A stretch of 30,024 bases of DNA from Promethearchaeota archaeon (GCA_011364975.1 RDOE01000043.1:1-30024), one strand, 5' to 3'. Positions 2,167 through 27,526 are shown, counted from the stretch's first letter. The notes: generated by a model not told the origin, from the letters alone. Made by a program: numbers and translations.

Positions 2167-3819
2167 TTAAGCAGTAACTTTATATCCTTTGAATAGCCTT
2201 AAGAGATACATAATTTCTTCAGAACCGTTGACTATTCTTTGAAGTTCGAAAGGAAGATTATTAAATTCTACTTGTTTACCTTCTTTAACCCATTTTATTA
2301 TTAGTTCTACGAGTTGCTTATATTTGTTAATTGTATTGCCCTCAAATTCTATTTCGGATAATATATGTAAAGCTTTATCTATTTTTCCATTCAAAACTGA
2401 AGATATAGCTGCTAAAATATAAGATTGTACGATGTGTGATGGGCCTATTTTTTTAAGATTTGCGGCTTTATAATAATATTTATAAACATTCCTTACCATT
2501 TCATTTACAAGAAAATCTTTCGCGATGTCTAGCTGCTGGTAAAATTTTATACTCTCTAAAATAAGAGTGGCAGAGATATAGAATTGTTTATTCTTCAATC
2601 CTTCTTTTGCGATGATATTTAGACCCCGAATTATTTGATTAAAAAGCCCAAATTGATTATATTCAAAACCACCTTCAACTGCGATATCATATGCCGTAAG
2701 ATAACATTCAGTAGAATCATTAACTTCTTTTATTTTCCAATAGTTATCACCTGCTTTAACATAATGTTTGTAAGCCATTTCAAGATTATTCATTTCCTTA
2801 AAAGTAAGAGCTGCATTATAGAAATTAGTAGCTGCTTCATCAAAATCCTCAATTTTTTCAGAATAATTACCCGCTAAGACAAAACAAGAAGCAGATTCTA
2901 TAAGATTATTGTTAATCTCTTGATAACACAATGCGGCACCCCGATAATATCGTCCGATTTTTTGATAATTTTCAGTTGTTTTTTCTAATCGTTCTGCTAA
3001 ATCTATATAAGCTCCAGCTTCTTTTTTTGAATAAGATACGAATTGTTCATCATCATTAATTAGTTGATATAAATTCTTCAAAACTTGAGCTATTTGTGAA
3101 ATAGCCAGATTATCATTTTTCTCTTCGAAATCACGATATAAATCAGTAAAAAATTCAATTCCATCGAGAATTATTTCATTAGATTTATTTATTTCATCTA
3201 ATTCTTTATAGCAAGTATATATTTGTTGGTAAGAAAAAGAAAGAAGATCAAGATATTGGAATTCTTTTGCGATATTTATAACATTGGTATAATATTTTTT
3301 TGCGTATTTGAAATCATTAATTCTAAAGTAAAGTTCCGCTATATTCTGATAATTTTGAGTAAGTTTACGTGATTCATTAAAATCTATTAATATTTTACTC
3401 TCTTGCTTTAGAAAATTAATACTATTTAAGGTATTTTTTCTGCATAATTTATAGTTATGGGCTTTTTCATATAAATCAGCGATTTTAAGATATATCTCGG
3501 CAATTTCGTGCAGCTTTCCTTGAAGTTTATAGGAATTAATTTGTCTTTCCCACAATTTTATTATAAAAGAATACATATTAGCAGGTGGATATTTAATAAT
3601 CTCTTCAAAAACTTCCGTAAAAGAGTATAAAAATTCTCCTGCTTCAAGATATTCTTCCGATTCCACTAAAGTATTAGCAAATGATGTAGCTTCAATGATT
3701 GTTTTTTGAATTAGGACTTCCTTTGCATTATCATCCTTAATATTATTAATCTCAAGTAATTGATCCCTTATTTTATCTAAATACTCTCCATCGTCATCAT
3801 AAATGTCTTCTTCTAATAT
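2167..3819 (-). CDS. Alpha-SNAP/TPR-like helical repeat protein
   Basis: Repeats such as SASCFVLAGNYSEK, AATNFYNAALTFKE, AYKHYVKAGDNYWK, STECYLTAYDIA resemble SNAP helical hairpins. The ORF track starts at GTG 3666, but the frame is open 51 codons further to an ATA at 3819 that follows GGTTGA by 6 nt; start is uncertain. Confidence 0.7.
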   Translation of the reverse strand: MLEEDIYDDDGEYLDKIRDQLLEINNIKDDNAKEVLIQKTIIEATSFANTLVESEEYLEAGEFLYSFTEVFEEIIKYPPANMYSFIIKLWERQINSYKLQGKLHEIAEIYLKIADLYEKAHNYKLCRKNTLNSINFLKQESKILIDFNESRKLTQNYQNIAELYFRINDFKYAKKYYTNVINIAKEFQYLDLLSFSYQQIYTCYKELDEINKSNEIILDGIEFFTDLYRDFEEKNDNLAISQIAQVLKNLYQLINDDEQFVSYSKKEAGAYIDLAERLEKTTENYQKIGRYYRGAALCYQEINNNLIESASCFVLAGNYSEKIEDFDEAATNFYNAALTFKEMNNLEMAYKHYVKAGDNYWKIKEVNDSTECYLTAYDIAVEGGFEYNQFGLFNQIIRGLNIIAKEGLKNKQFYISATLILESIKFYQQLDIAKDFLVNEMVRNVYKYYYKAANLKKIGPSHIVQSYILAAISSVLNGKIDKALHILSEIEFEGNTINKYKQLVELIIKWVKEGKQVEFNNLPFELQRIVNGSEEIMYLLRLFKGYKVTA

Positions 3820-9841: not shown

Positions 9842-10477
9842 ATGGATTTTGAAAAGTTAACGGAATTGATTATTGAATTAGAGGTAGATGATATCGCAGA
9901 TGCAGTGAGAGAGGCTTTAGAGAAGGATGGAAAGGATCCTTTCGATATTTTAGAAGCGCTGACAAAGGGTATGGACGAAGTTGGTAGAAGATATGAAGAA
10001 AAGGAATACTACTTGACTGAATTAGTGTTAGCTGGTGAGACAATGAAGGAGGCATTTGCAGTTTTAAAGCCAGCGTTAGCTGCTGCTGATAAATCACTTG
10101 ATAAAACTAAAATAATCTTAGCAACCGTAAAAGGGGATAATCATGATATTGGTAAAAATATTCTCGGTTCTCTTTTACTCAGTTCTGGTTTTGAGTTATT
10201 TGATTTAGGAATGGATGTGGATGAAAAAACCATTGTGGATAAGGTAAAAGAAACAGGAGCTACCATAATAGCATTAAGTTCACTTTTAACCATGACCGTA
10301 GAGCAAATAAAAGCGGTGCATGAGGCACTTAAGACTGCGGGAATACGAGACAAAGTAAAGCTTATAGTGGGAGGAGCACCATTAAATATGGAACTTGCCC
10401 GAAAGCTTGGAGCTGACGATTTTGCGGATGATGCAGTTGATGGAGTTAAACATATAAAGCAATTAGCGGGGAAATAA
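9842..10477 (+). CDS. Corrinoid (cobalamin-binding) methyltransferase cognate protein, MtaC/MtbC/MttC-like
   Basis: N-terminal cap (LTKGMDEVGRRYE...LVLAGE), B12 motif GDNHDIGKN, LSSLLT, IVGGAP. Confidence 0.92.
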   Translation: MDFEKLTELIIELEVDDIADAVREALEKDGKDPFDILEALTKGMDEVGRRYEEKEYYLTELVLAGETMKEAFAVLKPALAAADKSLDKTKIILATVKGDNHDIGKNILGSLLLSSGFELFDLGMDVDEKTIVDKVKETGATIIALSSLLTMTVEQIKAVHEALKTAGIRDKVKLIVGGAPLNMELARKLGADDFADDAVDGVKHIKQLAGK

Positions 10478-10712: not shown

Positions 10713-10967
10713 TTGTCGGCAGAAAAGAAAGAGAACATTAAATATGACGAAGAGTTAGATACCCGGGGATTATTTTGTCCAGAACCATTATTTGAAGTAA
10801 GAAATTTTGCCGAGACATTGGATATTGGCCAGTGTTTTAAAGTATTAGCTGATGATCCTGCAGCGGAAGAAGATTTAACTAGATGGGCAAAGAAGACTGA
10901 CACTGAGTTAGTAGAATTCGTTAAGGATGGAGACGATTTAATTTTTTATTTTAAAAAAAGAAAATGA
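10713..10967 (+). CDS. tusA: TusA/SirA-family sulfur carrier
   Basis: LDTRGLFCPEP, VLADDPAAEEDL; TTG start after GGAGGT. Confidence 0.9.
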   Translation: MSAEKKENIKYDEELDTRGLFCPEPLFEVRNFAETLDIGQCFKVLADDPAAEEDLTRWAKKTDTELVEFVKDGDDLIFYFKKRK

Positions 10968-10999
10968 AACAATTAAGTTCAAAAGAGGAATAATGTTAA

Positions 11000-12181
11000 A
11001 TGAGTGTATACTTAGATAACCAAGCAGCAAAACCTGTTGATAAGCGTGTAATTGATGAGATGATGGATTACTTTAATGATAAGTTTGCAAATCCTGCATC
11101 TCTTCATTGCGATGGTGATATTGCTACAGACATTTTGGAAAAATCACGCCAAAAAGTCGCAGATTTTATTAATGCGCCTAATAGAGAAGATATAATATTT
11201 ACTTCAGGTGCAACTGAATCAAATAATTTGGCGTTAATTGGTGGGGCTCTTAGAAATAAAAAGAAAGGGAATCACATAGTCATATCCGAAATAGAACATA
11301 TTTCAATTTTAAACATTGCTAAATATTTAGAAAGAGAAGGGTTTGTAATAAGTAGAGTTCCAGTTGATCGATTTGGGATTATAAGACTTGATAAGTTAGA
11401 ACGTTTAATAAGAGATGATACGGTAATGATTTCAATTGCGACCGCTAGCAATGAAGTGGGCTCATTACAGCCAATTGAAGAAATTAGCAAAATAGCAACT
11501 GAAAAAGGCGTACTTTTTCATACGGATGCAGTTCCAAGTGAAAGTGTAATTCCTATCGATGTACAAAAAACTCCGATTGATATGATTTCGCTGTCTTCTA
11601 ATGACATTTATGGGCCTAGAGGAGTAGGTGCGTTATATCTAAAGAAGGGAGTTCGAGTAAATCCAATAATTATCGGTGGTGGTCAAGAAAAAGGATTTCG
11701 ATCAGGATCTGAAAATATCCCGGGAATCGTAGGATTTGCTAAAGCAGCAGAAATTATGAAACAGGAAATGCCAAAAGAAGTACAATATCTGAAAGGTTTA
11801 CGAGATAAACTGATAAAAAATATTTTAGAAATTATTCCAAAATCATACTTAAATGGGCATCCTGAAAAAAGATTACCTCATAATGCTCATTTTCGATTTG
11901 ATTATATTGAAGGGGAGTCCTTGATTTTAACCTTGAAAGAAAATAATATTGCTGCTGCAACTGGGTCTGCTTGCAGTTCAAAAACGTTAGAGCCATCTCA
12001 TACGTTAATATCTATGGGTTTACTTCACGAGGAAGCTCATGGTTCTTTATTAGTCTCTTTAGGAAGGACTACGAAGGATTCTGATATCAATAAGTTAATC
12101 GAAGTTCTACCCGAATCAGTTAAAAGGTTACGAAAATTGTCACCCTTAACGCCTCCTGATATGTTAAAAGAATTAAATTAA
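11000..12181 (+). CDS. iscS: IscS/NifS-family cysteine desulfurase homolog with the PLP lysine replaced by Asp
   Basis: YLDNQA, FTSGATESNN, EHISI, GGGQEKGFRSGSEN, GSACSS present; SSNDIYGP where S(A/G)HKxYGP is expected. Confidence 0.9.
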   Translation: MSVYLDNQAAKPVDKRVIDEMMDYFNDKFANPASLHCDGDIATDILEKSRQKVADFINAPNREDIIFTSGATESNNLALIGGALRNKKKGNHIVISEIEHISILNIAKYLEREGFVISRVPVDRFGIIRLDKLERLIRDDTVMISIATASNEVGSLQPIEEISKIATEKGVLFHTDAVPSESVIPIDVQKTPIDMISLSSNDIYGPRGVGALYLKKGVRVNPIIIGGGQEKGFRSGSENIPGIVGFAKAAEIMKQEMPKEVQYLKGLRDKLIKNILEIIPKSYLNGHPEKRLPHNAHFRFDYIEGESLILTLKENNIAAATGSACSSKTLEPSHTLISMGLLHEEAHGSLLVSLGRTTKDSDINKLIEVLPESVKRLRKLSPLTPPDMLKELN

Positions 12182-12195
12182 GGTGAGAAAAAAAT

Positions 12196-12999
12196 ATGAA
12201 ATCAACTGAATATTCAGATAAAGTTTTAGATCATTTCAAGAACCCGCGGAATGTAGGTGAAATAGAGAATGCAGATGGTGTTGGCAAAGTAGGGAATCCT
12301 GTCTGTGGTGATCTAATGTGGATTTACATTAAAGTGGGAAAGAATGATAAAGGAGAGGAAATTATTGATGATATTAAATTTAAGACATTTGGTTGCGGTA
12401 GTGCCATAAGTACATCATCAATGATAACTGAGATGGTTAAAGGGATGAAACTCGATGAAGCATATAAAGTTAGTAGACAGGATGTTGCTGATGAATTGGA
12501 TGGCTTACCACCTATTAAAATGCATTGCAGTAATCTAGCCGCAGATGCATTAAAGGCTGCAATCGATAATTATAGAACGGGAGCAACTCCTGAAGTGGAA
12601 ATTGCTACGTCTTGCCAGCTTGATGTTCGTGTAATTTTAGGTGTTGATGAATTTCTTGGTAAAGGAGTTTATAAAGATATTCCTTCAGACCTAGAAGAAT
12701 TACGCGATAAAAGAATTCTAATAGTGGATTCAGGAGACAAATCCTTAGAACTTGCGCTAAAGCTGACAAAATACACAGGTAGAGTAATTGTGGTGACCTC
12801 TGCTCAATCGATTCCCGGAACAGTTGAAATTAGAAAGCAATTAAAACATTCTGCTGTGAAAGTATTGCAACAATCAGAACTCATCGAAATAAAAGGAGAA
12901 TTGGATGAGCTTGATAAGGTTGTTATACACGACTACGACGAGGATGAGAATTACGATTTGTTTGTTGATGTCGTTATACTATTAGATTACAGAGGGTAA
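12196..12999 (+). CDS. iscU: IscU/NifU-N Fe-S scaffold with a C-terminal degenerate thioredoxin-reductase-like Rossmann domain
   Basis: YSDKVLDHFKNPRNVG, NPVCGD, FGCGSA, LPPIKMHCS in aa 1-128; aa ~143-267 align by eye to the TrxB NADPH domain. Confidence 0.88.
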   Translation: MKSTEYSDKVLDHFKNPRNVGEIENADGVGKVGNPVCGDLMWIYIKVGKNDKGEEIIDDIKFKTFGCGSAISTSSMITEMVKGMKLDEAYKVSRQDVADELDGLPPIKMHCSNLAADALKAAIDNYRTGATPEVEIATSCQLDVRVILGVDEFLGKGVYKDIPSDLEELRDKRILIVDSGDKSLELALKLTKYTGRVIVVTSAQSIPGTVEIRKQLKHSAVKVLQQSELIEIKGELDELDKVVIHDYDEDENYDLFVDVVILLDYRG

Positions 13000-13124: not shown

Positions 13125-14285
13125 TTAAGTAGTAACTAATTTATAGAGATTTCCATCAAAAGCACAAAAATATAACTCTTTTTGGTTATCAATACCAAAT
13201 GAAGTAATTTGTAAATTAGTATCTACTAAAATTGTATTGTTTGTACCGTGAATTTCATCATATTCTAATGCCCAAATTTGGCCGTATTCAAAGTCTCCAT
13301 ATACATATTTTCCATATAATCCTGATAACTGTGATCCTCGATATACAAATCCTCCCGTTATAGAATGACCGATTAAATGTCCATATTCAAAAATAGGATG
13401 TTCTATTGTCGTAACATTGGTTCCGGGGTTATAAAGATGGGTTCCTTCATATGCATTCCATCCATAATTTTTACCACTTTCAATAATATCAATTTCTTCC
13501 CAGCTACTTTGACCTACATCTCCAGTCCAAAGCAATCCAGTGATTGGATCAAAGCTAAAGCGCCACGGATTTCTTAACCCGAACGCAAAGATTTCTTCCC
13601 TATATCCATTAGTATTTCCGTAAAATGGATTATCCAATGAGATATTGTAGGGGTCTCCAGAATTAATATCAATTCTCAATATCGAACCTAATAGATTCTC
13701 TCGATTTTGAGCATTTCCTAAAGGATCTCCCGCAGAACCGCCATCACCTAAGCCGATATAAAGATAATTATCTGGACCAAATGCAATTTGGCCTCCATTA
13801 TGGTTTGAATAGGGCTGCTCTACAGTTAGGATTATTTTCTGACTTGATTTATTGCCAGAATTGTTATCACCATTGTTTATTTTAAACCGTGAAATAATAG
13901 AGTCTCCAGTCGTGTTAGTATAATCCAAAAAAAAGTAGCCGTTAATGCTAAAATTCGGATGAAATGTCAATCCTAATAAGCCTCTTTCCCCTCCAGTAGA
14001 TATAATATCTGAAATGTCCATAAAAAGATATTTTTCTGAGGTGTTTAAAGTATTATTAAAAGTGTAAATCTTACCACCTTGTTCCAATACAAATAAGCGA
14101 TTAGTTCCATCATTCGGAGAATAAATACCCACAGGAGCTGAAAAGGAGAGGTTTGGGAATGCATTTTGAATAGTATACCCAAAAGGAGTTATAGTGTTTA
14201 AGAAAAAGTATACTCCTAAAAATATACCCAACGAAGTTATAATCACAATCGATAAAATGATAGTAATGATTTTTTTTTTCTTCAT
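13125..14285 (-). CDS. Membrane-anchored glucose/sorbosone dehydrogenase-family (PQQ-dependent type, HHIP-like) beta-propeller
   Basis: N-terminal K-rich + TM anchor; GERGLLGLTFHPNF, NHNGGQIAFGPD, GLGDGG, GLRNPWRFSFD, GDVGQ, NYGW, SITGG. Confidence 0.88.
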   Translation of the reverse strand: MKKKKIITIILSIVIITSLGIFLGVYFFLNTITPFGYTIQNAFPNLSFSAPVGIYSPNDGTNRLFVLEQGGKIYTFNNTLNTSEKYLFMDISDIISTGGERGLLGLTFHPNFSINGYFFLDYTNTTGDSIISRFKINNGDNNSGNKSSQKIILTVEQPYSNHNGGQIAFGPDNYLYIGLGDGGSAGDPLGNAQNRENLLGSILRIDINSGDPYNISLDNPFYGNTNGYREEIFAFGLRNPWRFSFDPITGLLWTGDVGQSSWEEIDIIESGKNYGWNAYEGTHLYNPGTNVTTIEHPIFEYGHLIGHSITGGFVYRGSQLSGLYGKYVYGDFEYGQIWALEYDEIHGTNNTILVDTNLQITSFGIDNQKELYFCAFDGNLYKLVTT

Positions 14286-14533: not shown

Positions 14534-16915
14534 ATGAAAAAAGTAGTAATTATCGGAGGAGTTGCTGCTGGGGCATCCGCAGCAGCTCGTTTGAGACGTT
14601 TAAAAGAAGATTATGAAATAATAATGTTAGATAAAGGTTCTTATGTGTCTTTTGCAAATTGTGGCTTACCTTATTATGTGGGTAACGTCATAAAAGATAG
14701 AGAGTCATTGGAATTGATGACACCCCAACGATTTCTCGAACGATTTAACATTGATGTAAGAATCCACTCTGAAGCTATTTCAATTGATCGTGAAAAAAAA
14801 TTGGTTAAGGTAAAAGATATTAATACGGATGAGCATTATAATCTTGAATACGATTACCTTCTACTAGCACCGGGATCAACTCCATTAATACCACCTTTTC
14901 CAGGTTTAGAGGATGTTCCTTCTTATTCAATATGGACTATTCCCGATGCTGTAAAGATTAGGGATTTTGTAGATAATAATAAAGTTAAGAATGCAGTGGT
15001 TGTTGGAGGGGGTTTTATTGGGTTGGAAATGGCAGAAAATTTAGTGGATAAAGGTGTGAGAGTTAAAATTGTGGAAATGCTTGACCAAGTTATGCCTCCT
15101 ATTGATAAAGAAATGGCTCAATTTATTCACCAGGAATTAATCTTAAACGGAGTTTGCTTGGTTTTAGAAGATCCTGTTGATTCTTTCGGGAGAACTAATA
15201 CAGATAAACCATATGTGAAAACAAAAAGTGGTAGAATAATTGAAACCGATTTAATTATTTTAGCTATTGGAATTAAACCTCAAACTAATTTAGCCAAAGA
15301 AGCGGGATTAAAATTGGGAAATCGGGGACATATCATTGTTGATGAGAGTATGCAAACATCAGACCCAAATGTTTATGCTGCTGGAGACGCGGTTTTAGTT
15401 AAACACCTTCAAACAAAAGAATCAGTTGCTATTGCATTAGCAGGTCCTGCAAACAAACAAGGTAGAATTGCTGCAGATAATATAGCAGGAAAGAATTCGA
15501 AATATAACGGAATTTTAGGAGCTTCGGTGGTGAAAGTATTTGATATGACAGTAGCAAGTGTAGGACTAACTGAAAAACAATTAAAGGGAGCTGAAATAAT
15601 ATATGAAAAAATTTATGTTCATCCTAATAATCATGCAAGTTATTATCCTGGGGCAGTTCCTCTTGCATTTAAGTTAATATTTGAAACTCCAACTGGAAAG
15701 GTATTAGGCGCTCAAGTAGTAGGAGGCCCTGGAAGCGATAAGAGGATTGATGTAATTTCTACTATCATAAAGATGGGAGGGACAGTTTTTGATTTAGAGG
15801 AATTAGAATTAACATACGCTCCACCTTATGGATCAGCAAAAGATCCGGTCAACATGGCAGGATTTGTTGCTTCAAATTTTCTAAGAGGTGATATGCCAAT
15901 TCAGCAATGGCATAATATAAAGGATTTTAAAACAAAAGGTGGCGTTCTATTAGATGTAAGATCTGTTGAAGAGTTTCAAGCACGGAATATTCAAGGGTCT
16001 ATTAACATTCCTATCGAAGAATTACGTGATAGAATGAACGAGGTCCCAAAAGGAAAACCAATACTAACATATTGTGAAGTGGGGTATCGAAGTTATTTAG
16101 CTACAAGAGTTCTATTGCAGAATGGTTTCGATGAAGTATATGACTTAACTGGTGGCTTTAAGACTTATGAAATGGCTAATACAACTACCGAAGAAATTGT
16201 TAATGCTTGTGGAGGATCGGAATCAATTATGGAAGAATTAGTTAAAGAAAAAGCTATTGAATCAACTGAATATGTCGAGATAGATTGTAGCGGAATGATA
16301 TGCCCCGGCCCATTGAATGCAATGATTAAATCTTTAGAAACTCTTCCCGAAGGTAAAGAGTTAAAAATCTATGCTACAGATCCAGGATTCAAATCAAGTG
16401 TAGAAGCATATGTTAAGCTCAACGAAGCAATAGAATTGATCCATTTAGGAAAGGAAGAGGGTAAAATAGTAGCGAAACTTAGGAAAGGGAAAATTAAGGT
16501 TGAAGAGATAGCAATGCCCGTTAAACCTAAGAAAAAGACTCGTAAGGAATTACGGGCTTCGAATGCACCTCCAGTATCTGAAATAAGTTCCGATGAATTA
16601 TATGAAAGACTTGATTCTGAAGACGCCCCTTCACTTCTTATCGATGTACGCACTCCTCAAGAGTATAGTAGTCCACATGGACACATTAAAGGTTCAAAAC
16701 TTCTTCCATTAGGAGAATTAATGTACAATATGGATGCTCTTGAAAATTATAAAAATGAAGAGATAGTTGTAATATGTCATAGTGGTTCGCGTTCTATGAT
16801 GGCCGCTCAACTTCTTGCTCAAGCTGGTTATAAAGACCTTAGAAACCTAACTGGAGGTATGATGATGTGGAACCGTAAAGGTTATCCCATAGAGAATGGG
16901 AGAGAGTCCTATTAA
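14534..16915 (+). CDS. CoA-disulfide/persulfide reductase fused to rhodanese, TusA and second rhodanese domains
   Basis: GGVAAG, SFANCGLPY, GGGFIG, YAAGD, YAPPY; rhodanese YCEVGYRS; TusA IDCSGMICPGP; rhodanese ICHSGSRS. Confidence 0.92.
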   Translation: MKKVVIIGGVAAGASAAARLRRLKEDYEIIMLDKGSYVSFANCGLPYYVGNVIKDRESLELMTPQRFLERFNIDVRIHSEAISIDREKKLVKVKDINTDEHYNLEYDYLLLAPGSTPLIPPFPGLEDVPSYSIWTIPDAVKIRDFVDNNKVKNAVVVGGGFIGLEMAENLVDKGVRVKIVEMLDQVMPPIDKEMAQFIHQELILNGVCLVLEDPVDSFGRTNTDKPYVKTKSGRIIETDLIILAIGIKPQTNLAKEAGLKLGNRGHIIVDESMQTSDPNVYAAGDAVLVKHLQTKESVAIALAGPANKQGRIAADNIAGKNSKYNGILGASVVKVFDMTVASVGLTEKQLKGAEIIYEKIYVHPNNHASYYPGAVPLAFKLIFETPTGKVLGAQVVGGPGSDKRIDVISTIIKMGGTVFDLEELELTYAPPYGSAKDPVNMAGFVASNFLRGDMPIQQWHNIKDFKTKGGVLLDVRSVEEFQARNIQGSINIPIEELRDRMNEVPKGKPILTYCEVGYRSYLATRVLLQNGFDEVYDLTGGFKTYEMANTTTEEIVNACGGSESIMEELVKEKAIESTEYVEIDCSGMICPGPLNAMIKSLETLPEGKELKIYATDPGFKSSVEAYVKLNEAIELIHLGKEEGKIVAKLRKGKIKVEEIAMPVKPKKKTRKELRASNAPPVSEISSDELYERLDSEDAPSLLIDVRTPQEYSSPHGHIKGSKLLPLGELMYNMDALENYKNEEIVVICHSGSRSMMAAQLLAQAGYKDLRNLTGGMMMWNRKGYPIENGRESY

Positions 16916-17110: not shown

Positions 17111-17695
17111 ATGAAAGAAACGCCTAAAAAATTATTCGCTGCGTATGTTGGAGAATCTCAAGCTCGAAACCGCTATACATTCTTCTCTTCCATCGCAAAA
17201 AAGGAAGGATTTGTATTAATAACAAATATTTTCCTAGAAACTGCAGATCAAGAGAGAGAACATGGCTTAAATTTCTATAAAATGCTTCAAGAGTTTAAGA
17301 AAGAAGAGAATTTTGATGCATTTAAGGTTAGTGAAGAATATCCAACCACATATAGCACGACTATCGAAAATCTAAAGTCCGCTGTTAATGGAGAAAATAT
17401 GGAATGGCAAACGCTTTATCCAGATTTAGCGGCTACTGCAGAAAAAGAAGGATATCCCCATATTGCTAAAAGAACGAGAGCTATAGCCCGAGCTGAGCAA
17501 CATCATGCCGAACGATATGGTAAATTATTGAAACTAATTGGTGATGATGCGTTCTTTAAGAGAGGTAAAAAGATTGTGTGGGTTTGTATGGAATGTGGTT
17601 ATGAAGTAGAGATGGACCATCTTCCCAAAGACTGGAAATGCCCAAGCTGTGATCATCCAAGAGCTAACTTCAGAAAGAAATGTGAAGATTTCTAA
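17111..17695 (+). CDS. rbr: Rubrerythrin
   Basis: GESQARNRY, EREH, ENME, EQHH diiron motifs; C-terminal CMEC...CPSC. Confidence 0.93.
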   Translation: MKETPKKLFAAYVGESQARNRYTFFSSIAKKEGFVLITNIFLETADQEREHGLNFYKMLQEFKKEENFDAFKVSEEYPTTYSTTIENLKSAVNGENMEWQTLYPDLAATAEKEGYPHIAKRTRAIARAEQHHAERYGKLLKLIGDDAFFKRGKKIVWVCMECGYEVEMDHLPKDWKCPSCDHPRANFRKKCEDF

Positions 17696-17795
17696 ACAAT
17701 AGTTTGCGTGTTATAAAATTTAAGCATAATAATTAAATAATAATATACAAAAATTGAAACATAGCCTTATGGATTGTTAAAAGAGAAGATATTTT

Positions 17796-18188
17796 ATGAA
17801 ACAAAAAGAAATTTATAAATGCAATATATGTGGTAAAGTAATTGAAATTCTTCATCCTGCGGCTCCAGAAACCGTGTGTTGCGGTGAACCTATGAAATTA
17901 ATGGAAGAAAAGACTGCGGACTGGAAAGGAGAGAAACATGTGCCTAAGATAACCATTAAAGGTAACACAATTACTGTAGACGTAGGTATTTCTATGGGAA
18001 CTCCTCACCCTATGACTAAAGAACATTACATTATGTGGATTGAGCTAATCTGCAAAAATAATTGCTATAAAAGGCAATTTTTATCTCCTGGAATGGAACC
18101 TAAAGCAACCTTCGTTGTTTCTGACCCATCCGGATTAGTTGCAAGAGAATATTGTAATCTTCATGGTTTATGGAGAGGGGATAAATAG
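17796..18188 (+). CDS. dfx: Desulfoferrodoxin (2Fe superoxide reductase)
   Basis: CNIC...CCG desulforedoxin domain; EKHVP, HPM, EHYI, CNLHGLW. Confidence 0.95.
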   Translation: MKQKEIYKCNICGKVIEILHPAAPETVCCGEPMKLMEEKTADWKGEKHVPKITIKGNTITVDVGISMGTPHPMTKEHYIMWIELICKNNCYKRQFLSPGMEPKATFVVSDPSGLVAREYCNLHGLWRGDK

Positions 18189-18346
18189 AAAAAGCTTTAA
18201 CTTCTTTTTATTTTTTTTCTTATATTTCACATTTGGTAATTTAAATTTTAGTTTGAATATTAAATAGAATGAACATTTCAGATTATAATTTAAATTATTT
18301 CTTAAATTTATAAAAATATAGAAGAGAAATAATTTAAGGTTAAATT

Positions 18347-19039
18347 ATGATTAAAGCGATAATGTTTGATTTAGATGGAACACTTATTGGACAAAAAAAG
18401 GCTAGTTCCGTGGTCTTAAGTCAATTTTATTCAGAAAACAAGGCACGATTTGGCAATATGGAACAAAAAGAATTTTTTAATAATTGGTTTAAAGCAGGTC
18501 GAAAAAATCTCCAAGATTTTCTTAAAGGCGAAATCACATTTGAGGATAAAATGATTACTCAAATTTTAGAGTTTTTTCAAAATTCAAATAATAAAATCGT
18601 AGAAAGTGAAGCAAGTGAAATCTTTAATAAATTTTTACCGATTTATGAAGAAAATATTATCTTATTTGATGATGTAATACCATGTTTAGAATATTTATTA
18701 AAAGAGAAATATCAACTTGGAATAATTACAAATGGACACAGTAAGGATCAAAGAGAAAAGCTGCGTAGATTTAATCTTGAAAAGTATTTTCCTACAGTAA
18801 TCGTTTCAGGCGAAATTGGGTTTGCTAAACCTAGTGCAGAAATATTTCTCGAATGTGCTAATATCCTTAAGTTATCTCCCAATGAAATAATGTATATTGG
18901 AGATATGGTTGAAATGGATGTAATTGGAGCTAATGAGGTTGGAATACGAGGAATTTGGCTCAACAGGGAATCTGAAAAAAACCAAAATGATATCCTTTCT
19001 ATATCAACGTTAAATGAATTAAAAAATCTAATAGAGTAA
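18347..19039 (+). CDS. HAD-family hydrolase (YjjG-like)
   Basis: FDLDGTL, ITNG, AKP, IGDMVEMDVIGA. Confidence 0.88.
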   Translation: MIKAIMFDLDGTLIGQKKASSVVLSQFYSENKARFGNMEQKEFFNNWFKAGRKNLQDFLKGEITFEDKMITQILEFFQNSNNKIVESEASEIFNKFLPIYEENIILFDDVIPCLEYLLKEKYQLGIITNGHSKDQREKLRRFNLEKYFPTVIVSGEIGFAKPSAEIFLECANILKLSPNEIMYIGDMVEMDVIGANEVGIRGIWLNRESEKNQNDILSISTLNELKNLIE

Positions 19040-19069
19040 ATATATACAATTAAATTAAAGTCAGGGTTT

Positions 19070-19621
19070 ATGGAGCAAAACGAAGCCATCATTTTAGATA
19101 GAGATGGAGTCTTAATAGAGGATAAAAATTATTCCTATAAAATTGAAGATTTAGAGATTTTACCCGGAGTTATAGAGGGTTTAAAATTATTGCAAGCCAA
19201 GTTCTTATTTTTTATTGTAACCAATCAATCAGGGATTGGGATGGGTTATTACACAGTTAAAGAGTTTCAAATTTATAACGATCACTTAATCTTTCTTTTA
19301 AAAAAGCATGATATACATATTCAAAAAACCTTTTTCTGTCCACATCTTAAGGAAGAAAATTGTGAATGTAGAAAACCTAACCCTAAATATTTGTTTGAAA
19401 TTAGAGATGGTTGGGATATAGATTTGAAATCATCATGGGTATTTGGAGATCATCCATCAGATATCATTTTTGGAATAAATGGAGGATGCAAAACAGTATA
19501 TATGGTTACTGGTCATGGTGAAAAACATTTAAAGGAATTGGAATCTCAAAATATTAAACCAAATCTAGTAAGCTCGAAATTTTTTAATGCCGCAAAACGG
19601 ATCCTTGAAATCTCTGATTAA
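19070..19621 (+). CDS. HAD-IIIA phosphatase (GmhB / histidinol-phosphatase-like)
   Basis: LDRDGVL, VTNQSGI, CPH...CECRKP, GDHPSD. Confidence 0.88.
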   Translation: MEQNEAIILDRDGVLIEDKNYSYKIEDLEILPGVIEGLKLLQAKFLFFIVTNQSGIGMGYYTVKEFQIYNDHLIFLLKKHDIHIQKTFFCPHLKEENCECRKPNPKYLFEIRDGWDIDLKSSWVFGDHPSDIIFGINGGCKTVYMVTGHGEKHLKELESQNIKPNLVSSKFFNAAKRILEISD

Positions 19622-19735
19622 ATTCAGAAAGTTTTGTTTTAAAACTCACCTTATCTTAAATAAGAGGCCAATATAAAAGCGTAGTATAATATATCCAAAT
19701 TATGTGACCATATCACCTTTTTTATTTAATTTAAG

Positions 19736-20200
19736 ATGCTCAATAAAAAAATAAATAATGCAACCCTTTGGGATAAAATTCGGAAACTAAGAGAGCTGAT
19801 TAAGTCAGAAATAGAATTCAAAGAAAGAATTTGTTGGAATTGTGGTAAAGGTTTAAACATCTATGATTTTATGAGTGATAATGTTTATTATAGTCCAGAA
19901 TATATTCTAAGATTATGGCAAGCTTCTGTACTTCAGTTTCATTGCTGTGATTGTTTTAAAAATTTAAAAATAGATGAACTTAAAAATATTGAACAAGAGT
20001 TAGGTAAAAGATGTTGTTTGTTTTGTAATAAATCAATGGATATTTATCAATTTAGCAAAATTAATAGTGATTTGAAGATATATGAGCTAAAAATTCTCTG
20101 GCTTGATAGGAATTATGAGCTATTTTGTGATAATTTGTGTAAACGGAAGTATTACAAAAAATATTATGATTTTCTTAATAAAATAAAAAATAAAAAATAA
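19736..20200 (+). CDS. Hypothetical protein with two tandem Cys-rich putative metal-binding repeats
   Basis: CWNC...CCDC and CCLFC...FCDNLC with shared IYxF and LW spacing. Confidence 0.7.
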   Translation: MLNKKINNATLWDKIRKLRELIKSEIEFKERICWNCGKGLNIYDFMSDNVYYSPEYILRLWQASVLQFHCCDCFKNLKIDELKNIEQELGKRCCLFCNKSMDIYQFSKINSDLKIYELKILWLDRNYELFCDNLCKRKYYKKYYDFLNKIKNKK

Positions 20201-20216
20201 TGTTATAAAATTGAAT

Positions 20217-21398
20217 TTAATCTCTATCTCTTTTAAACACGCTAGGCAAAGCATGTTCATATTGTTTCATAACAAAACGAGAGATAACTATTCTTTGTAT
20301 TTCACTTGTTCCCTCGTAAATTTGATATAACTTTGCATCTCTAAATAATTTTTCAACAGGATATGTCCTTAAATACCCATATCCACCAAATATTTGAATC
20401 GCTTCTGTAGTTACATTCATTGCCACATCTGAGGCAAATGCTTTAGCAATCGAAGAACTTAAATTGTTATCCATCCCTTGATCCGCTTCCCAAGCAGCCT
20501 TATAGGTTAAGAGCCGTGCAGCTTCTACATCCTTATACATATTTGCTATCTTTTCTTGAATCATTTGATAATTTCCTATTGGTCGGCCGAATGCTTCTCT
20601 CTTGTTAGCGTAATCTATTGAATATTCCATTGCTGAACGAGCGCATCCTACTGCGAATGCTCCTATTGCAGGGCGAGTATGAGCAAAAGTTTGCATTGCT
20701 AAAACGAATCCTCTGCCAGGTTTCGCAAGAACATTTTCTTTTGGAATTCTCACGTTTTTAAGCCCTACAGCAACAGTATTAGAAGCTCTTTGTCCTAATT
20801 TTGGGATATGTTTCCCCAATCGGACTCCTTCCGATTTTGAATCCACAATAAATGCTGCGATTCCTTTATGCTTTTTTTCAGGATCTACTGTAGCAAATAC
20901 GGTAATATAATCAGCAAATCCCCCATTAGTTATCCAAAACTTATTTCCATTTAAGATGTACTCATCACCATCTTTTTCAGCGCGGCATTTCATCCCGGCA
21001 ACATCTGAGCCCATTGAAGCTTCAGAAGTCGCAAAAGCAATTAATTTAAAGTCATTTATTAATTCTCCTAAAATTCTCTGCTTTTGCTCTTCATTACCTC
21101 CAATTATAATTGGTTCTGCACCAAGATTATTATCAAAGATTGAAGTCGCAATTCCAGGACAAGCAGATGACATTTCTTCTACTACGATACATGAATCAAG
21201 TAAACCATACCCAAGACCACCATATTTCGTTGGAATAGCTAAATTCAACAGATCCTCTTCCCAAGCTTTTTTAATGACGGGAAGGGGGAACTCCTCTGAA
21301 GCATCATATTTTTGAGCAACCGGTAATACTTCACGAATAGCAAACTCTCTTGCTTTCTTTTGTAATGCTTTTTGTGCATCTGATAACATAAAATCCAT
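20217..21398 (-). CDS. Acyl-CoA dehydrogenase
   Basis: FATSEASMGSD, LNGNKFWITNG, REAFGRPI, AIQIFGGYGY, IYEGTSEIQ (catalytic Glu). Confidence 0.95.
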   Translation of the reverse strand: MDFMLSDAQKALQKKAREFAIREVLPVAQKYDASEEFPLPVIKKAWEEDLLNLAIPTKYGGLGYGLLDSCIVVEEMSSACPGIATSIFDNNLGAEPIIIGGNEEQKQRILGELINDFKLIAFATSEASMGSDVAGMKCRAEKDGDEYILNGNKFWITNGGFADYITVFATVDPEKKHKGIAAFIVDSKSEGVRLGKHIPKLGQRASNTVAVGLKNVRIPKENVLAKPGRGFVLAMQTFAHTRPAIGAFAVGCARSAMEYSIDYANKREAFGRPIGNYQMIQEKIANMYKDVEAARLLTYKAAWEADQGMDNNLSSSIAKAFASDVAMNVTTEAIQIFGGYGYLRTYPVEKLFRDAKLYQIYEGTSEIQRIVISRFVMKQYEHALPSVFKRDRD

Positions 21399-21410
21399 TT
21401 TTTATTACCT

Positions 21411-22619
21411 CTAAATACTCATTTTATCTATTAACTTATCGATAATGAGCTTAAAGTCTAAATCAGCTGGTTTTGGAACATATTTAATTTTGATTTTTTC
21501 ATCCATAACATCAAATTTAGTATCCTGTAAAATTTGGACAATCTCATCAGGGCATTGACCTGACCATCCATAGGACCCAAATGCAAGCCCAATCTTATTC
21601 ATTGGTTTAAGTCCTTTCTGATAAGATAAATACTCTGCAACTGTTGGATATAACCCATTGTTTAATGTTGGACTTCCTACTAAAATGGCCTTTGCTTTCA
21701 TAGCTTCTGTTATTACATCTGAGTAATCAGCAGTGGTAAGTTTAAACCTTTTAACAGCAATTCCTCGATGTTCGATTTCATTCTGAAGAGCTTTAGCTAT
21801 TTTTTCCGTACTACCCCACATAGTATCATAGACTATAAGAACGCTTTTTTCATCTAGCTCTCCTTTACTCCATTTAGTATACGCTTCCACAATATCTTTA
21901 ATATTACTTCGCCAACAAACACCATGAGAAGGACATATAAGATCAATTGGTAAAGATCCAACTTTAGGTAAGACTTTTGCGATCAAACCTGATAAATGAA
22001 GAAGGATATTCGCATAATACTTTTCTGCTTCTTGCATTATTACACACATATCATTTTCATCATCCCAACGCTTAGATGTAGCAAAATGCTGACCAAAGGC
22101 ATCATTAGAAAAAAGTACATTCTTTCCCTTTTCATCAGTCATGAAAGATACCATAGAATCTGGCCAATGAATCATAGGAATTGGAACAAACGTAAATTTC
22201 TTTCCATTACCTATGTCTAAAGTATCTCCCTCTTTGACTGCTCTAATTCTGTTGAATAGATCATCTGCTAATTCTTCATGATAATGTCCTCTTAATGCAT
22301 CAACTCCTCTTTCGGAAGCTATAATTTCTGTATTGGGAAGATGCTTTACAATTAATGGAAAAGAGCCTGAATGATCAGGTTCAACATGATTGACGATTAA
22401 ATAATCTATATCTTCAAGCTTGCATATTGATTTTATATTCTCTAAGAAATATTCAAAATAAGGACGCTTAACGGTATCTATTAAAACTGTTTTCTCTCCC
22501 TTAACTATATAAGCGTTATAGCTACTTCCTTTATGAGTGCTATACCCATGAAAATTTCGCACCTCGAAATCAACATATCCTACATACCATACATCTTTCA
22601 TTAATTCTAAATGTGTCAT
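21411..22619 (-). CDS. fprA: Flavodiiron protein (FprA, O2/NO reductase)
   Basis: HVEPDH, HWPD, SNDAFG, PSHG; flavodoxin domain YDTMWGSTE, GSPT, FGSYGWSG. Confidence 0.95.
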   Translation of the reverse strand: MTHLELMKDVWYVGYVDFEVRNFHGYSTHKGSSYNAYIVKGEKTVLIDTVKRPYFEYFLENIKSICKLEDIDYLIVNHVEPDHSGSFPLIVKHLPNTEIIASERGVDALRGHYHEELADDLFNRIRAVKEGDTLDIGNGKKFTFVPIPMIHWPDSMVSFMTDEKGKNVLFSNDAFGQHFATSKRWDDENDMCVIMQEAEKYYANILLHLSGLIAKVLPKVGSLPIDLICPSHGVCWRSNIKDIVEAYTKWSKGELDEKSVLIVYDTMWGSTEKIAKALQNEIEHRGIAVKRFKLTTADYSDVITEAMKAKAILVGSPTLNNGLYPTVAEYLSYQKGLKPMNKIGLAFGSYGWSGQCPDEIVQILQDTKFDVMDEKIKIKYVPKPADLDFKLIIDKLIDKMSI

Positions 22620-22809
22620 GATTAGTTTAACTCCTTTTTTAGGATTTAATTTATGTTATACTTCTTTTTGTATTTAATAAATTTAATTTCTTTATCTTAT
22701 AAATTAAATCTAAAAAAATTGAAGATGATAAGGATTAAATAATTAAAAGAAATAATTATACATGTAAAAATAAGAATCCAATAAAAATCGTTTAATTTAA
22801 GGATGCTAA

Positions 22810-23484
22810 ATGAGAATTTTAAAAAAGCAATTTAAACATTATGTAATTACTTATTTAATCCTAATAGTATGGTACCTTATTTGTTGCGTAATTTTCATAC
22901 CTTATCTAATTTTAGGGGGTTTTATCAATATTATATTATATATTGCGTCTGTATATACTTTTTATAAATATTATTTTACTCTCAGCTTTAAGCTTGGATT
23001 AAGTGCAACTATTTTTTATTTCCTACCTTTTGGTTTAATTTTTCTTTTTGGATTTTACTTTAGTCCAATAGCAGCGATGTATCTAATATTTTTTCCAATG
23101 TCGATAATTTCATGGGTCGGGGCTATAATATTCCTTGTTATATTAAAAAAGTATTTAGAAATTGAGCCTAATTTAAAAGAAGAACATGAGATTGAAATGA
23201 AAGTAAGAAATATGGATTTTGAGACAAGAAAGAACCGATTATTGGGGATGGTTAGGATTGATAAATTTTTGGATCTTGAAAAGGCTCAACTTTTTCTTGG
23301 AATGAGTAAATACGACATCAAAGCTCTTATCTATGATTTAGCGGGTGAGAAAAAACTAGAAGGTGATTTTAAAGATAATAGGTTTATTATTACATCGAAT
23401 ATTGATGATTTCTTGTTAGAATTAGAACTTAGTTTCATTAATTGGCAAGAAAAGACCACTTTGAGTCATACTAAGGTAAGATAA
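22810..23484 (+). CDS. Membrane protein (about 4 TM helices) with a C-terminal PCI/winged-helix-like domain
   Basis: Hydrophobic aa 10-112; then LDLEKAQLFLGMSKYDIKALIYDLAGEKKLEGDFKDNRFII, a winged-helix pattern judged by eye. Confidence 0.6.
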   Translation: MRILKKQFKHYVITYLILIVWYLICCVIFIPYLILGGFINIILYIASVYTFYKYYFTLSFKLGLSATIFYFLPFGLIFLFGFYFSPIAAMYLIFFPMSIISWVGAIIFLVILKKYLEIEPNLKEEHEIEMKVRNMDFETRKNRLLGMVRIDKFLDLEKAQLFLGMSKYDIKALIYDLAGEKKLEGDFKDNRFIITSNIDDFLLELELSFINWQEKTTLSHTKVR

Positions 23485-23553
23485 ATAACTGCAAGCAACT
23501 CTACCAGATTATTAGAATTCAATAAAAAAAAGAAAAATAATAGTATACAAAAC

Positions 23554-23694
23554 TTAATCAGATATTTTAGTAAAAAAACTTTTGTCAACACCACAGACAG
23601 GACATACCCAATCATCAGGTAAATCTTCCCATTTGGTGCCTTCAGCATCTTCATCGTAGATATAGCCACAAGCACCGCATTCGTATTTTGCTAT
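23554..23694 (-). CDS. Rubredoxin (46 aa) with apparent ATA start
   Basis: Hand-translated (M)[45 protein letters not shown]; AGGTGA 6 nt before ATA. Absent from the ORF track. Confidence 0.9.
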
Positions 23695-23869
23695 GAGTTT
23701 TCACCTATTTTAAGTTATTTTTTAATTTTCTTGATTATTTTGGATTTATGAATTGAATCTATGTTAAAAATATTAATTTAATAATTTATAAATAAGATAG
23801 ATTTTTTATCGCGCTTAAAGGACTATTTTATTAGTTTTTATCGAAGGAAAAAAAAAGAAAATAATGAGA

Positions 23870-24082
23870 TTATATTTTTAATTCAATGACTCTTTCTTGA
23901 TGGTCTTTTACTTTATCTGGAGTCAATTTATAGAATTTCCAGAATATAAGAGTTCCAATGAGCATTATAATACCAGGAATTAAAGCAAAATGAAGATCGA
24001 TTCCAAAGAGAGCAGAGCTAGAAGTAGGATTAACGTCAAATCCAGTTAGAATATGAACAATCGAAAATGAAGCGGCTTGCAT
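23870..24082 (-). pseudogene. C-terminal fragment of an MFS/GPH-type transporter
   Basis: IVHILTGF...LHFALIPGIIMLIGTLIFWKFYKLT resembles the last helices of MelB/GPH-like transporters; in-frame TAA two codons upstream and only 49 nt to the previous gene. Confidence 0.55.
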
Positions 24083-24131
24083 TGATTATGAAATTTCAAA
24101 TAGAAAGGAAAAAAGTATTTTGGAAGGAGGT

Positions 24132-25754: not shown

Positions 25755-25841
25755 AACTAATGTTTAGGAAACAAATATATTATGATTTACTATAAATCAA
25801 AAGCGTAAAAGAAAGAGAATGAGATTTAAATAAACCTTGAA

Positions 25842-25982
25842 TTAAAGCTCTTTTTTAACGAAAAAAGACTTAGATGCCCTACATTTAGGACATTTGAAAT
25901 CTTCTTCAACTTTTTCAAATGGTTTAGCTTGTTCATCATCTAAATAAAGATAGTTACATCGTTTACATCTATGAATACTCAT
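25842..25982 (-). CDS. Rubredoxin-like protein (46 aa)
   Basis: Hand-translated MSIHRCKRCNYLYLDDEQAKPFEKVEEDFKCPKCRASKSFFVKKEL*; GGAGGA SD upstream; begins 14 nt after the oxidoreductase stop. Below ORF-track length. Confidence 0.88.
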   Translation of the reverse strand: MSIHRCKRCNYLYLDDEQAKPFEKVEEDFKCPKCRASKSFFVKKEL

Positions 25983-25996
25983 ATTTTGTATCCTCC

Positions 25997-27379: not shown

Positions 27380-27526
27380 TTTTATTATGATTTCTAAATT
27401 ATAAGGAAAATAAGGGTTTGAGAAGATGTTCGCGAAAAAGATTATAATTTTTACAAAATAGGTTTTTAAGTGAAACTACGCTAAATTGTAATTAATATTA
27501 TATTAAAATGTAAAAGGTGAAATAAA

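Follow-up and report, generated by a model that had tools for sequence, protein, structure and literature searches.

A tusA-iscS-iscU operon in a Promethearchaeota genome as a candidate relay-fed iron-sulfur assembly module

How might an operon assemble iron-sulfur (Fe-S) clusters when its IscS lacks the lysine that binds pyridoxal phosphate (PLP), and from where would its sulfur come? The question is raised by a stretch of 30,024 nucleotides from Promethearchaeota archaeon (GCA_011364975.1, RDOE01000043.1:1-30024), referred to here as the window, in which three open reading frames (ORFs) lie in one orientation on the plus strand: tusA (10713..10967, 84 aa), a MisS-like iscS (11000..12181, 393 aa), and iscU fused to an additional C-terminal domain (12196..12999, 267 aa). 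They are separated by 32 and 14 nt, and a purine-rich GGAGG-like stretch precedes each of them; tusA has a TTG start, with GGAGGT 7 nt before it. A first-pass annotation, made from the sequence, had described these genes as tusA, a lysine-less IscS retaining Cys325, and an IscU fused to a pseudo-thioredoxin-reductase domain, and its coordinates, spacing, orientation and domain assignments, together with Cys325, are all borne out. Our preferred reading, to which we assign a probability of roughly 55%, is that the operon is a relay-fed, desulfurase-independent Fe-S assembly module, the Lokiarchaeal form of an archaeal tusA-(dsrE)-iscS-iscU cluster built around a lysine-less IscS.

The IscS encoded in the window matches Pfam Aminotran_5 over residues 3–366 (E 6.5e-77), as expected of a class-V aminotransferase fold. 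The codons for S199-S200-N201-D202 (11594..11605, within a codon-pattern match at 11594-11628) stand in place of the canonical Ser-Gly-His-Lys PLP site, so that N201-D202 occupies the positions of His-Lys, and every NCBIfam equivalog score falls below its cut-off (for example NifS, 462.5 against 530.75). The mobile-loop cysteine is kept: Cys325 (codon 11972..11974), within GSACSS, is shared by all 24 of the sequences aligned. Among matches to IscS entries in the PDB, which range from 1e-133 to 1e-93, the closest solved relative is Archaeoglobus fulgidus IscS (4eb5/4eb7/4hvk; E 1.4e-133 over residues 3–383), and SSNDIYGP is identical in the two proteins (alignment to 4eb5_A). By alignment, then, this is an A. 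fulgidus-type IscS, a kind already known. Entry 4r5f carries Lys at the Asp position (SSNK), and a 2022 review identifies it as the D199K variant of A. fulgidus IscS (PMC8918507). Because the protein cannot form the PLP-lysine aldimine, it most likely lacks cysteine desulfurase activity, as judged by homology to the A. fulgidus enzyme.

In the same review's account, A. fulgidus IscS has Asp199 for the lysine, binds pyridoxamine phosphate (PMP) and is devoid of desulfurase activity; it is proposed to act solely as a scaffold that contributes one Cys ligand to the IscU [2Fe-2S] cluster, with sulfide as a possible sulfur source (PMC8918507). Reviews including that one describe the structure of the IscS-IscU D35A complex, in which the IscS active-site Cys is the fourth [2Fe-2S] ligand, and its treatment of the pair leaves open how clusters are assembled without desulfurase activity (PMC8918507). 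Methanosarcina acetivorans IscS1 is likewise described as lacking the catalytic lysine (PMC7585200). With a lysine-less IscS and sulfide-fed assembly both in print for A. fulgidus, neither idea is new here, and the cysteine-independent Fe-S assembly put forward in the first-pass annotation had already been published.

The gene arrangement recurs well beyond the window. A codon-pattern scan for S-S-N-D-x-Y-G-P-[KR]-G-V-G (SSND) over species-representative genomes returned at least 120 stretches, and linkage was counted in the first 80 of those having 2-kb flanks; since several loci end at contig ends, the counts for TusA, DsrE and IscU are lower bounds. A TusA gene is present in 62 of the 80 loci, a DsrE-like gene in 41, and an adjoining IscU in 70, comprising 45 plain forms (one of which is a frameshifted fusion), 23 with the short C-terminal domain and 2 with a full reductase. 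By record title, 25 loci are from Bathyarchaeia, 19 from Asgard archaea, 2 from Archaeoglobi and 9 from bacterial-labelled contigs of metagenome-assembled genomes (MAGs); Hadarchaeia, Thermoplasmatota, Methanomassiliicoccales, Methanocellales, Methanosarcinales and relatives, Methanophagales, and Thaumarchaeota/Nitrososphaerota are also represented. The carrier-cysteine motif CPxP is found in 82 of 82 operon-linked TusA homologues and VC[ED]xS in 49 of 55 DsrE-like proteins. The window's TusA has Cys22 within CPEP and matches Pfam TusA (3.2e-18; 65.8 bits, above the cut-off of 28.6), with an NCBIfam TusA equivalog score of 47 that is below the cut-off of 78. The cluster tusA-(dsrE)-iscS[SSND]-iscU is pan-archaeal, and the linkage of TusA, usually plus a DsrE-like carrier, to SSND IscS beyond Asgard archaea fits a sulfur-relay input.

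A complementary sample of 20 loci, picked by the C-terminal domain alone and spanning genera and families, gave the order tusA-iscS-fusion in 19, all of whose IscS proteins carry both SSND and GSAC. SSND is also present in the neighbouring IscS genes of relatives, 4 of 4 in addition to the 19 of 19. With five more genomes added, an SSND IscS lies directly upstream of the fusion in 24 of 25 loci and a lysine-type IscS in none, so that the co-occurrence of SSND IscS with IscU fusions of the thioredoxin-reductase type, to which the first-pass annotation had pointed, is confirmed. In 14 of the 19 Asgard loci a DsrE-family gene of 119–124 aa stands between tusA and iscS (Pfam DsrE, 4e-10 to 2e-14). 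The one exceptional locus, from a Thorarchaeal genome (G368:C1:1443000-1453200), has the fusion but neither iscS nor tusA next to it; with two masked 100-N stretches close by, the exception may be only apparent.

Searching 400 genomes of the phylum with the C-terminal domain gave matches in 245 at E<=1e-5, a figure that includes weak matches near 1e-6 that are probably true thioredoxin reductases (TrxRs). The window's own family accounts for 120 of 134 genomes at this threshold (again with a few only at about 1e-6, probably true TrxRs), two other families of the same order for 9 of 14 and 4 of 4, and three further families of the same class (f5, f6 and f7) for 2 of 3, 1 of 2 and 2 of 2. Most of the genomes listed for a Thorarchaeia-labelled family, which was tallied jointly with two others (77 of 89), match at E 1e-19 to 1e-32. 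The SSND codon pattern was found in 154 of the 400 genomes and a reversed control pattern in none; the exact pattern under-detects, returning fewer genomes than the domain search, and is not used for claims of absence. In one Asgard family of 19 genomes, 14 contain the pattern and a single one the domain, at E 7.4e-6, the level of probable true TrxRs, and in four large families neither the domain nor the under-detecting pattern was found (0/31, 0/12, 0/22 and 0/12).

The fusion protein has two parts joined by a linker. Residues 1–128 (12196..12579) form the IscU scaffold domain with all cluster ligands, matching NifU_N over residues 5–128 (9.6e-48) and TIGR03419 at 197 bits, above the cut-off of 187.9; the best NCBIfam NifU_proper score of 155 is below its cut-off of 273. 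The ligands C37, D39, C67, H110 and C111 and the LPPIK motif (L104–K108) are invariant or nearly so. Residues 129–145 (12580..12630) are a linker containing a lone Cys141 (codon 12616-12618), and residues 146–267 (12631..12999) constitute the C-terminal domain, hereafter the C-domain. In an AlphaFold (AF2) model built from 30 sequences, with a mean predicted local distance difference test score (pLDDT) of 86.7 and a predicted template-modelling (TM) score of 0.50, the two domains are confident and the linker is predicted to be flexible, with pLDDT <50 at residues 136–144. In Foldseek the first domain resembles IscU structures (5e-17, TM(target) 0.8–0.9) and the C-domain resembles the NADPH domains of TrxR and TrxR-like ferredoxin-NADP+ reductases (FNRs) (3f8p, 2q7v, 2zbw; about 2e-10), superposing about 120 columns with a root mean square deviation of 1.8 and 20–28% identity. 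Profile matches agree weakly: fusion residues 130–260 align with positions 100–230 of 300 in TIGR01292 at 9.6e-11, far below cut-off, and Pfam Pyr_redox matches the C-domain at 1.4e-3, also below cut-off.

Aligned with full-length fusions described below, the C-domain corresponds exactly to their NADPH domain, and both halves of the flavin adenine dinucleotide (FAD) domain are deleted. The redox-active CxxC is missing, GKGVYKDIPSD standing at the TrxR GVSxCATCDG site. In TrxRs the GGGDSA loop contacts the dinucleotide and the HRR motif the 2'-phosphate of NADPH; relative to a full-length fusion that retains both (L133), the window has DSGDKS for GGGDSA and TSA for HRR. Lacking the FAD domain and CxxC, and having a degenerate Gly-rich loop and HRR, the C-domain cannot be a reductase of the TrxR family. 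Comparison of the window with its closest relative nevertheless gives a ratio of nonsynonymous to synonymous substitution rates (dN/dS) of 0.056 (dS 0.95) for the C-domain, compared with 0.02 in the IscU portion and 0.05 in the linker, values that come from one pair because more distant pairs are saturated. The C-domain is under purifying selection and is not decaying.

The probable ancestor of this domain is visible in other lineages. The family is a narrow one: when 1.84 billion representatives were searched with the C-domain only, 81 proteins passed E<=1e-3 and 29 of them E<=1e-10. Representatives of 150–200 aa, considered as possible stand-alone C-domain proteins, were rejected, since those inspected are fragments of the fusion beginning at an internal IscU Met ('MHCSNL...'). 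In a family labelled Jordarchaeia or 'Freyarchaeum', a 448-aa IscU is fused to a complete TrxR-like flavoprotein (Pyr_redox_2 3e-44; 1e-43 to 1e-29 over about 300 residues against TrxR/FNR entries in the PDB), which keeps the GGGPAG FAD motif and has Tyr/Thr, with no Cys, at the CxxC position (alignment to 2q7v). Its operon reads tusA, SSND iscS, a 136-aa ORF without Pfam match, then the fusion. Two further full-length fusions were found (L093, L133), the latter retaining GGGDSA and HRRDELRA, and the nucleotide motifs can be arranged in a stepwise decay from GGGDSA/HRR (L133) through GNGDQA (Jordarchaeia) to DSGDKS/TSA in the window; every short form has other residues at the first two glycines of GGGDSA and at HRR. 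Thorarchaeia also have a stand-alone TrxR-like relative, which in 5 of 5 genomes lies away from the isc locus.

A tree built on 39 domain sequences, after three of an initial 42 were dropped for too short a match, places all 14 short domains in one clade (100/100) on a long stem, with canonical TrxRs in a separate clade (95/95). Fused full-length and stand-alone TrxR-like forms make up a polytomy. The most economical reading is a single truncation of a scaffold-fused reductase.

Two observations bear on how the fused forms are recorded. One 448-aa IscU-TrxR-like frame (L071:5510-6856, genome G117) is given only 326 aa in one source, under the name 'NAD(P)/FAD-dependent oxidoreductase'; set against the 448-aa form found elsewhere, this indicates that the fusion is hidden in some annotations. 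Separately, six bacterial-labelled MAG contigs (L078 and L119; also L094, L106, L122 and L150) carry a tusA-dsrE-iscS(SSND)-iscU cluster with the additional domain, the L078 fusion being split by a frameshift. Two Actinomycetota-labelled contigs have 63–67% G+C compared with 32–44% in Asgard loci, which for those two suggests real transfer rather than mis-binning.

The retained domain has a plausible partner in the lysine-less IscS. An IscS dimer was modelled with fusion residues 145–267 as three chains using custom alignments, giving a docking score of 0.65 (0.65, 0.64 and 0.68 in three runs), compared with 0.00 for the best of 3 controls. At the mark applied, 58 of 80 solved complexes pass, against 2 of 110 mismatched pairs, counts that are only a rough guide for this three-chain, custom-alignment setup. 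Contact agreement in the docking runs is at least 100%, with partner pLDDT >=87. On IscS the modelled interface comprises residues 121, 123–125, 132, 135–136, 337–340 and 342–343, just past the Cys loop; on the C-domain it comprises 171–173, 194–196, 222, 224, 236–240 and 253–258, taking in the invariant or nearly invariant R173, R196, K222, L224, E240, Y253 and D258. We know of no solved complex of this pair, and a score that reproduces a known structure seems unlikely. The model supports docking of the C-domain on IscS beside the Cys loop.

In Escherichia coli the R340E substitution of IscS is described as weakening or abolishing the binding of ThiI, IscX, CyaY and TusA but not of IscU. Residue 337 of the window's IscS would correspond to E. 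coli Arg340 if the offset between Cys325 and Cys328 holds. The remnant may, on this model, occupy in cis the accessory-protein site beside IscU, which would explain why the NADPH half of the reductase was retained. In E. coli both TusA (3LVJ) and IscU (3LVL) dock near the Cys loop, and the C-domain footprint modelled at 337–343 would fall at about E. coli 340–346 under the same offset. The difference is that E. coli IscS passes a PLP-made persulfide to TusA, whereas the IscS of the window cannot make a persulfide and its putative partner is tethered in cis to IscU.

A second conserved feature is a lone cysteine on the predicted flexible arm. Exactly one linker Cys (Cys141 in the window) is present in 38 of 45 distinct short fusions, and none of the 45 has a Cys inside the C-domain core. 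Three others, all from one Lokiarchaeal family, lack the linker Cys and have exactly one in a short C-terminal tail, and the 4 without a lone Cys are all on bacterial-labelled contigs. No linker Cys occurs in the three full-length fusions. Of the 40 plain IscUs beside SSND IscS in which the motif could be recognised, 37 lack a Cys past the IscU domain, and two from Archaeoglobi (L112, L140) have an acidic tail ending in a single Cys. In the sequences compared, a lone Cys on a flexible arm recurs in three arrangements, and it is a candidate persulfide acceptor or extra cluster ligand.

The window is contig C143 of a genome of 3.74 Mb in 200 contigs, estimated to be 99% complete, and public records label close relatives of its IscU as Lokiarchaeota/Promethearchaeota. 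The genome also encodes conventional Fe-S components. Contig C164 carries a second IscS of 386 aa with a canonical SAHKLYGPKG site, 51% identical to the IscS of the window, and a plain 136-aa IscU; two more NifU_N matches and a SufB-like gene are present in the same genome. The operon is therefore best regarded as a second, specialised system, and cysteine independence, which the first-pass annotation had attached to the assembly system, does not extend to the organism. No genes of the hscAB/fdx type adjoin the window's IscS/IscU pair, and the thiosulfate importer YeeE/TsuA (PF04143) was not found in this genome.

If the IscS of the window cannot make persulfide, sulfur flow must reverse or bypass it. 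From the gene linkage, domain content and models we infer the following sulfur route and direction, electron route, and roles for the C-domain and Cys141. Sulfane sulfur would be delivered in protein-bound form by TusA, with DsrE-like and rhodanese/TusA-fused partners where these are present. The lysine-less IscS dimer would be the platform to which IscU binds, its Cys325 carrying persulfide and/or serving as a cluster ligand, and IscU would be the scaffold on which the cluster forms. The ancestral fused NAD(P)H:flavin reductase presumably provided the electrons with which S0 was reduced to S2- and clusters were coupled. With the FAD domain and nucleotide motifs lost in Loki- and Thorarchaeia, electrons would now have to come from elsewhere, and the remnant C-domain may serve as a cis-tethered docking or gating module on IscS, the lone linker Cys being kept. 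A more ambitious version joins these parts into one statement: that the pan-archaeal tusA-dsrE-iscS(Lys->Asp)-iscU cluster encodes a persulfide-relay-fed machine needing no desulfurase, with a built-in reductase for electrons that in Loki- and Thorarchaeia was pared down to an IscS-docking domain at the frataxin/IscX/ThiI surface while a swinging-arm linker Cys was gained, either to take sulfur from TusA or to complete cluster ligation. We regard that full chain as tentative and on the doubtful side. If true, it would name the intermediate sulfurtransferases and the electron donor that are missing from the 'minimal' archaeal system.

The first-pass annotation had suggested that TusA or a nearby rhodanese/TusA-fused persulfide reductase loads sulfur onto Cys325 and then IscU. 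The gene in question (14534..16915, plus strand) encodes a CoA-disulfide/persulfide-reductase-like flavoprotein (CoADR) fused to rhodanese, TusA and rhodanese domains (in Pfam, Pyr_redox_2, Pyr_redox_dim, two rhodanese domains and one TusA domain). In relatives, 6 of 25 loci have a homologue as the next gene after the fusion, within a reach of about 2.5 kb, and the TusA linkage likewise fits a relay; the direction from TusA to Cys325 to IscU is the part of that suggestion which remains conjecture. In relatives such as L045 the fusion and CoADR-rhodanese-TusA genes are adjacent on the same strand, whereas in the window a glucose/sorbosone-dehydrogenase (GSDH) family gene on the opposite strand (13125..14285, minus) intervenes.

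Several points count against a relay-fed module. Its mechanism, for this protein and for the fused forms, rests on sequence and models; the interface is a modelled one rather than demonstrated binding, and the mapping to E. coli residues is a -3 offset deduced from Cys325/Cys328. The polytomy leaves the sister group of the short domains unplaced, which makes descent from a fused full-length form economical rather than proven, and some MAG labels behind the taxonomic spread may be wrong. The lysine-type IscS of the same genome could supply persulfide, so an environmental or relay source of sulfur is not required. The published hypothesis of free sulfide would, moreover, need neither carrier nor reductase. 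In its fullest form, free S2- from a sulfidic habitat would feed the scaffold, the lysine-less IscS would be a structural partner or Cys ligand, and TusA and DsrE would have another purpose, such as feeding thio-cofactors or buffering persulfides. Print descriptions favour this: sulfide has been proposed for A. fulgidus IscS, and the archaeal MIS system is said to be able to use it (PMC8918507 and a 2026 review). So does the patchiness of the carriers, with no TusA within 2 kb in 18 of the 80 SSND loci (some of which reach contig ends) and no DsrE-like gene in 39; operonic dsrE is missing from the window and from 5 of the 19 relatives' loci, and no orthologue of it was found elsewhere in the 99%-complete genome with the query used. 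A separate dsrE-tusA pair, adjoining a LysR-type regulator, does occur at C138:76132-76720; its DsrE is only 24% identical to the relatives' operonic DsrE and was rejected as an orthologue on that ground. A purely sulfide-fed scaffold nonetheless accounts poorly for TusA linkage in 62 loci over many phyla with the carrier Cys intact, and for the lineages in which IscU is fused to a whole NAD(P)H flavoreductase, and we consider it unlikely.

The role of the operon, or of its C-domain, may also have been misjudged. Instead of serving general de novo assembly, the operon might be a stress-linked module for Fe-S repair, storage or sensing, in which a stable IscS-IscU [2Fe-2S] complex is maintained or sensed when oxidative or sulfur stress sets in, with the lysine-type IscS/IscU and SufBC-like proteins doing the housekeeping. 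The canonical IscS, plain IscU and SufB-like gene of this genome, and the oxygen-defence genes downstream in the window, are in keeping with this, as is the report that the M. acetivorans proteome consistently showed only IscS2/IscU2 and not IscS1 (PMC7585200). That neighbourhood was looked at in this window only, however, and the operon is conserved in very different contexts across phyla, and all the assembly ligands of IscU and its LPPIK are intact; a stress module is very unlikely in our judgement. Somewhat less so, yet still distinctly unlikely, is a C-domain that continues to bind NAD(P)H or another dinucleotide as a redox/energy sensor or flavin-free hydride relay. The Rossmann fold is confidently predicted, G180 (the middle glycine of the loop) and the next Asp are nearly invariant, and purifying selection on the domain is strong, but the loop and HRR replacements seen in all short forms affect motifs that a full-length relative keeps, and no flavin domain remains as hydride acceptor. 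That the C-domain is a decaying, functionless remnant would follow simply enough from the loss of the FAD domain, CxxC and nucleotide motifs; its low dN/dS, single clade and confident modelled interface built from the most conserved residues, together with an open frame kept across Loki- and Thorarchaeial families (and E values of 1e-20 to 1e-34 in other classes), make the chance of this close to negligible. The relay-fed module remains the reading that we prefer.

Comparison with known systems shows what is shared and what appears peculiar to this cluster. The A. fulgidus IscS-IscU pair (4EB5/4EB7, 4HVK) resembles that of the window in its SSND site, retained loop Cys and adjoining IscU, and in Archaeoglobi TusA is upstream of SSND IscS in 2 of 2 loci (L112, L140), whose single-Cys IscU tail parallels the linker or tail Cys of the fusions. 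It differs in having a plain 153-aa IscU with no reductase-derived domain, and the published descriptions consulted mention neither TusA/DsrE linkage nor an electron donor. For the isc1 pair of M. acetivorans (IscS1 MA0808/IscU1 MA0807), compared here by description only, IscU1 is given as unusually large, at 24.2 kDa, and the pair as clustered with four genes of unknown function (PMC7585200). The MIS system (MisS/MisU), attributed to Garcia et al. 2022 as summarised in the 2026 review, is likewise a two-component archaeal IscS/IscU-like pair without chaperones or carriers that is said to be able to use sulfide, membership of it being defined phylogenetically; in that summary it is described without additional components, whereas pairs of the present type come with conserved TusA/DsrE carriers and with a reductase, whole or as a remnant, fused to IscU. 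The review states that electron donors of MIS are unknown and places an intermediate sulfurtransferase only in SUF.

Other partial parallels exist. NifU, as described, also joins an N-terminal IscU-like scaffold and a proposed electron-donating redox module in one polypeptide, in that case a ferredoxin-like [2Fe-2S] domain followed by Nfu rather than a TrxR-type flavoprotein (Jordarchaeia) or its NADPH domain (window). The C-domain shares the NADPH-domain fold of low-Mr TrxRs and TrxR-like ferredoxin-NADP+ reductases (2Q7V, 3F8P, 2ZBW, 3LZW); it differs in having no FAD domain, no CxxC (a mark of TrxR proper), and a degenerate Gly-rich loop and HRR. The described TusA/DsrE relays (Metallosphaera cuprina DsrE3A-TusA; sHdr cascades) likewise involve adjacent tusA and dsrE-family genes with a conserved carrier Cys, and they feed dissimilatory sulfur oxidation or Hdr-like complexes, whereas here the pair precedes the lysine-less IscS and IscU. 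The one Asgard preprint in which TusA/DsrE came to our attention mentions them in the Hdr context only. In the open-access full-text literature, with subscription journals largely outside, no account of a tusA/dsrE linkage to a lysine-less IscS, of an IscU-TrxR fusion or of the remnant of one was found. The tusA/dsrE linkage, the TrxR-remnant domain and the lone flexible Cys are apparently undescribed, and Garcia et al. 2022 may already record some of them.

The gene context offers candidates for open questions about this type of system, namely TusA/DsrE-like carriers for sulfur and a scaffold-fused NAD(P)H flavoreductase for electrons. Across lineages the full-length fusion, the NADPH-domain-only fusion and plain IscU amount to a natural 'deletion series', and the C-domain clearly illustrates how part of an enzyme can be retained for non-catalytic docking, the docking itself being the modelled part. 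No link to eukaryotic ISC was found, though the system occurs in Asgard archaea.

Metatranscriptome contigs with >=99% identity match short stretches of all three genes, and one contig bridges the tusA/iscS junction with 6 differences in 247 aligned bases (about 97.6% identity). These matches are weak evidence of expression, since a contig does not demonstrate a transcript and DNA may have been carried over. Just upstream of tusA, at 9842-10477, lies a gene for a two-domain B12-binding (corrinoid) protein, and the same neighbour occurs in 7 of 25 loci. Downstream, 17111-29431 is an oxygen/redox-defence neighbourhood containing rubrerythrin (17111-17695), desulfoferrodoxin (17796-18188), a flavodiiron protein (21411-22619, minus strand), a rubredoxin reductase-rubredoxin fusion (25997-27379, minus strand) and a hybrid-cluster protein (27542-29431). 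Near the other end of the window, at 2167-3666 on the minus strand, a 499-aa protein of the tetratricopeptide-repeat type has a match at 4.9e-10 to the SNAP (soluble NSF attachment protein) family, which is typical of eukaryotes.

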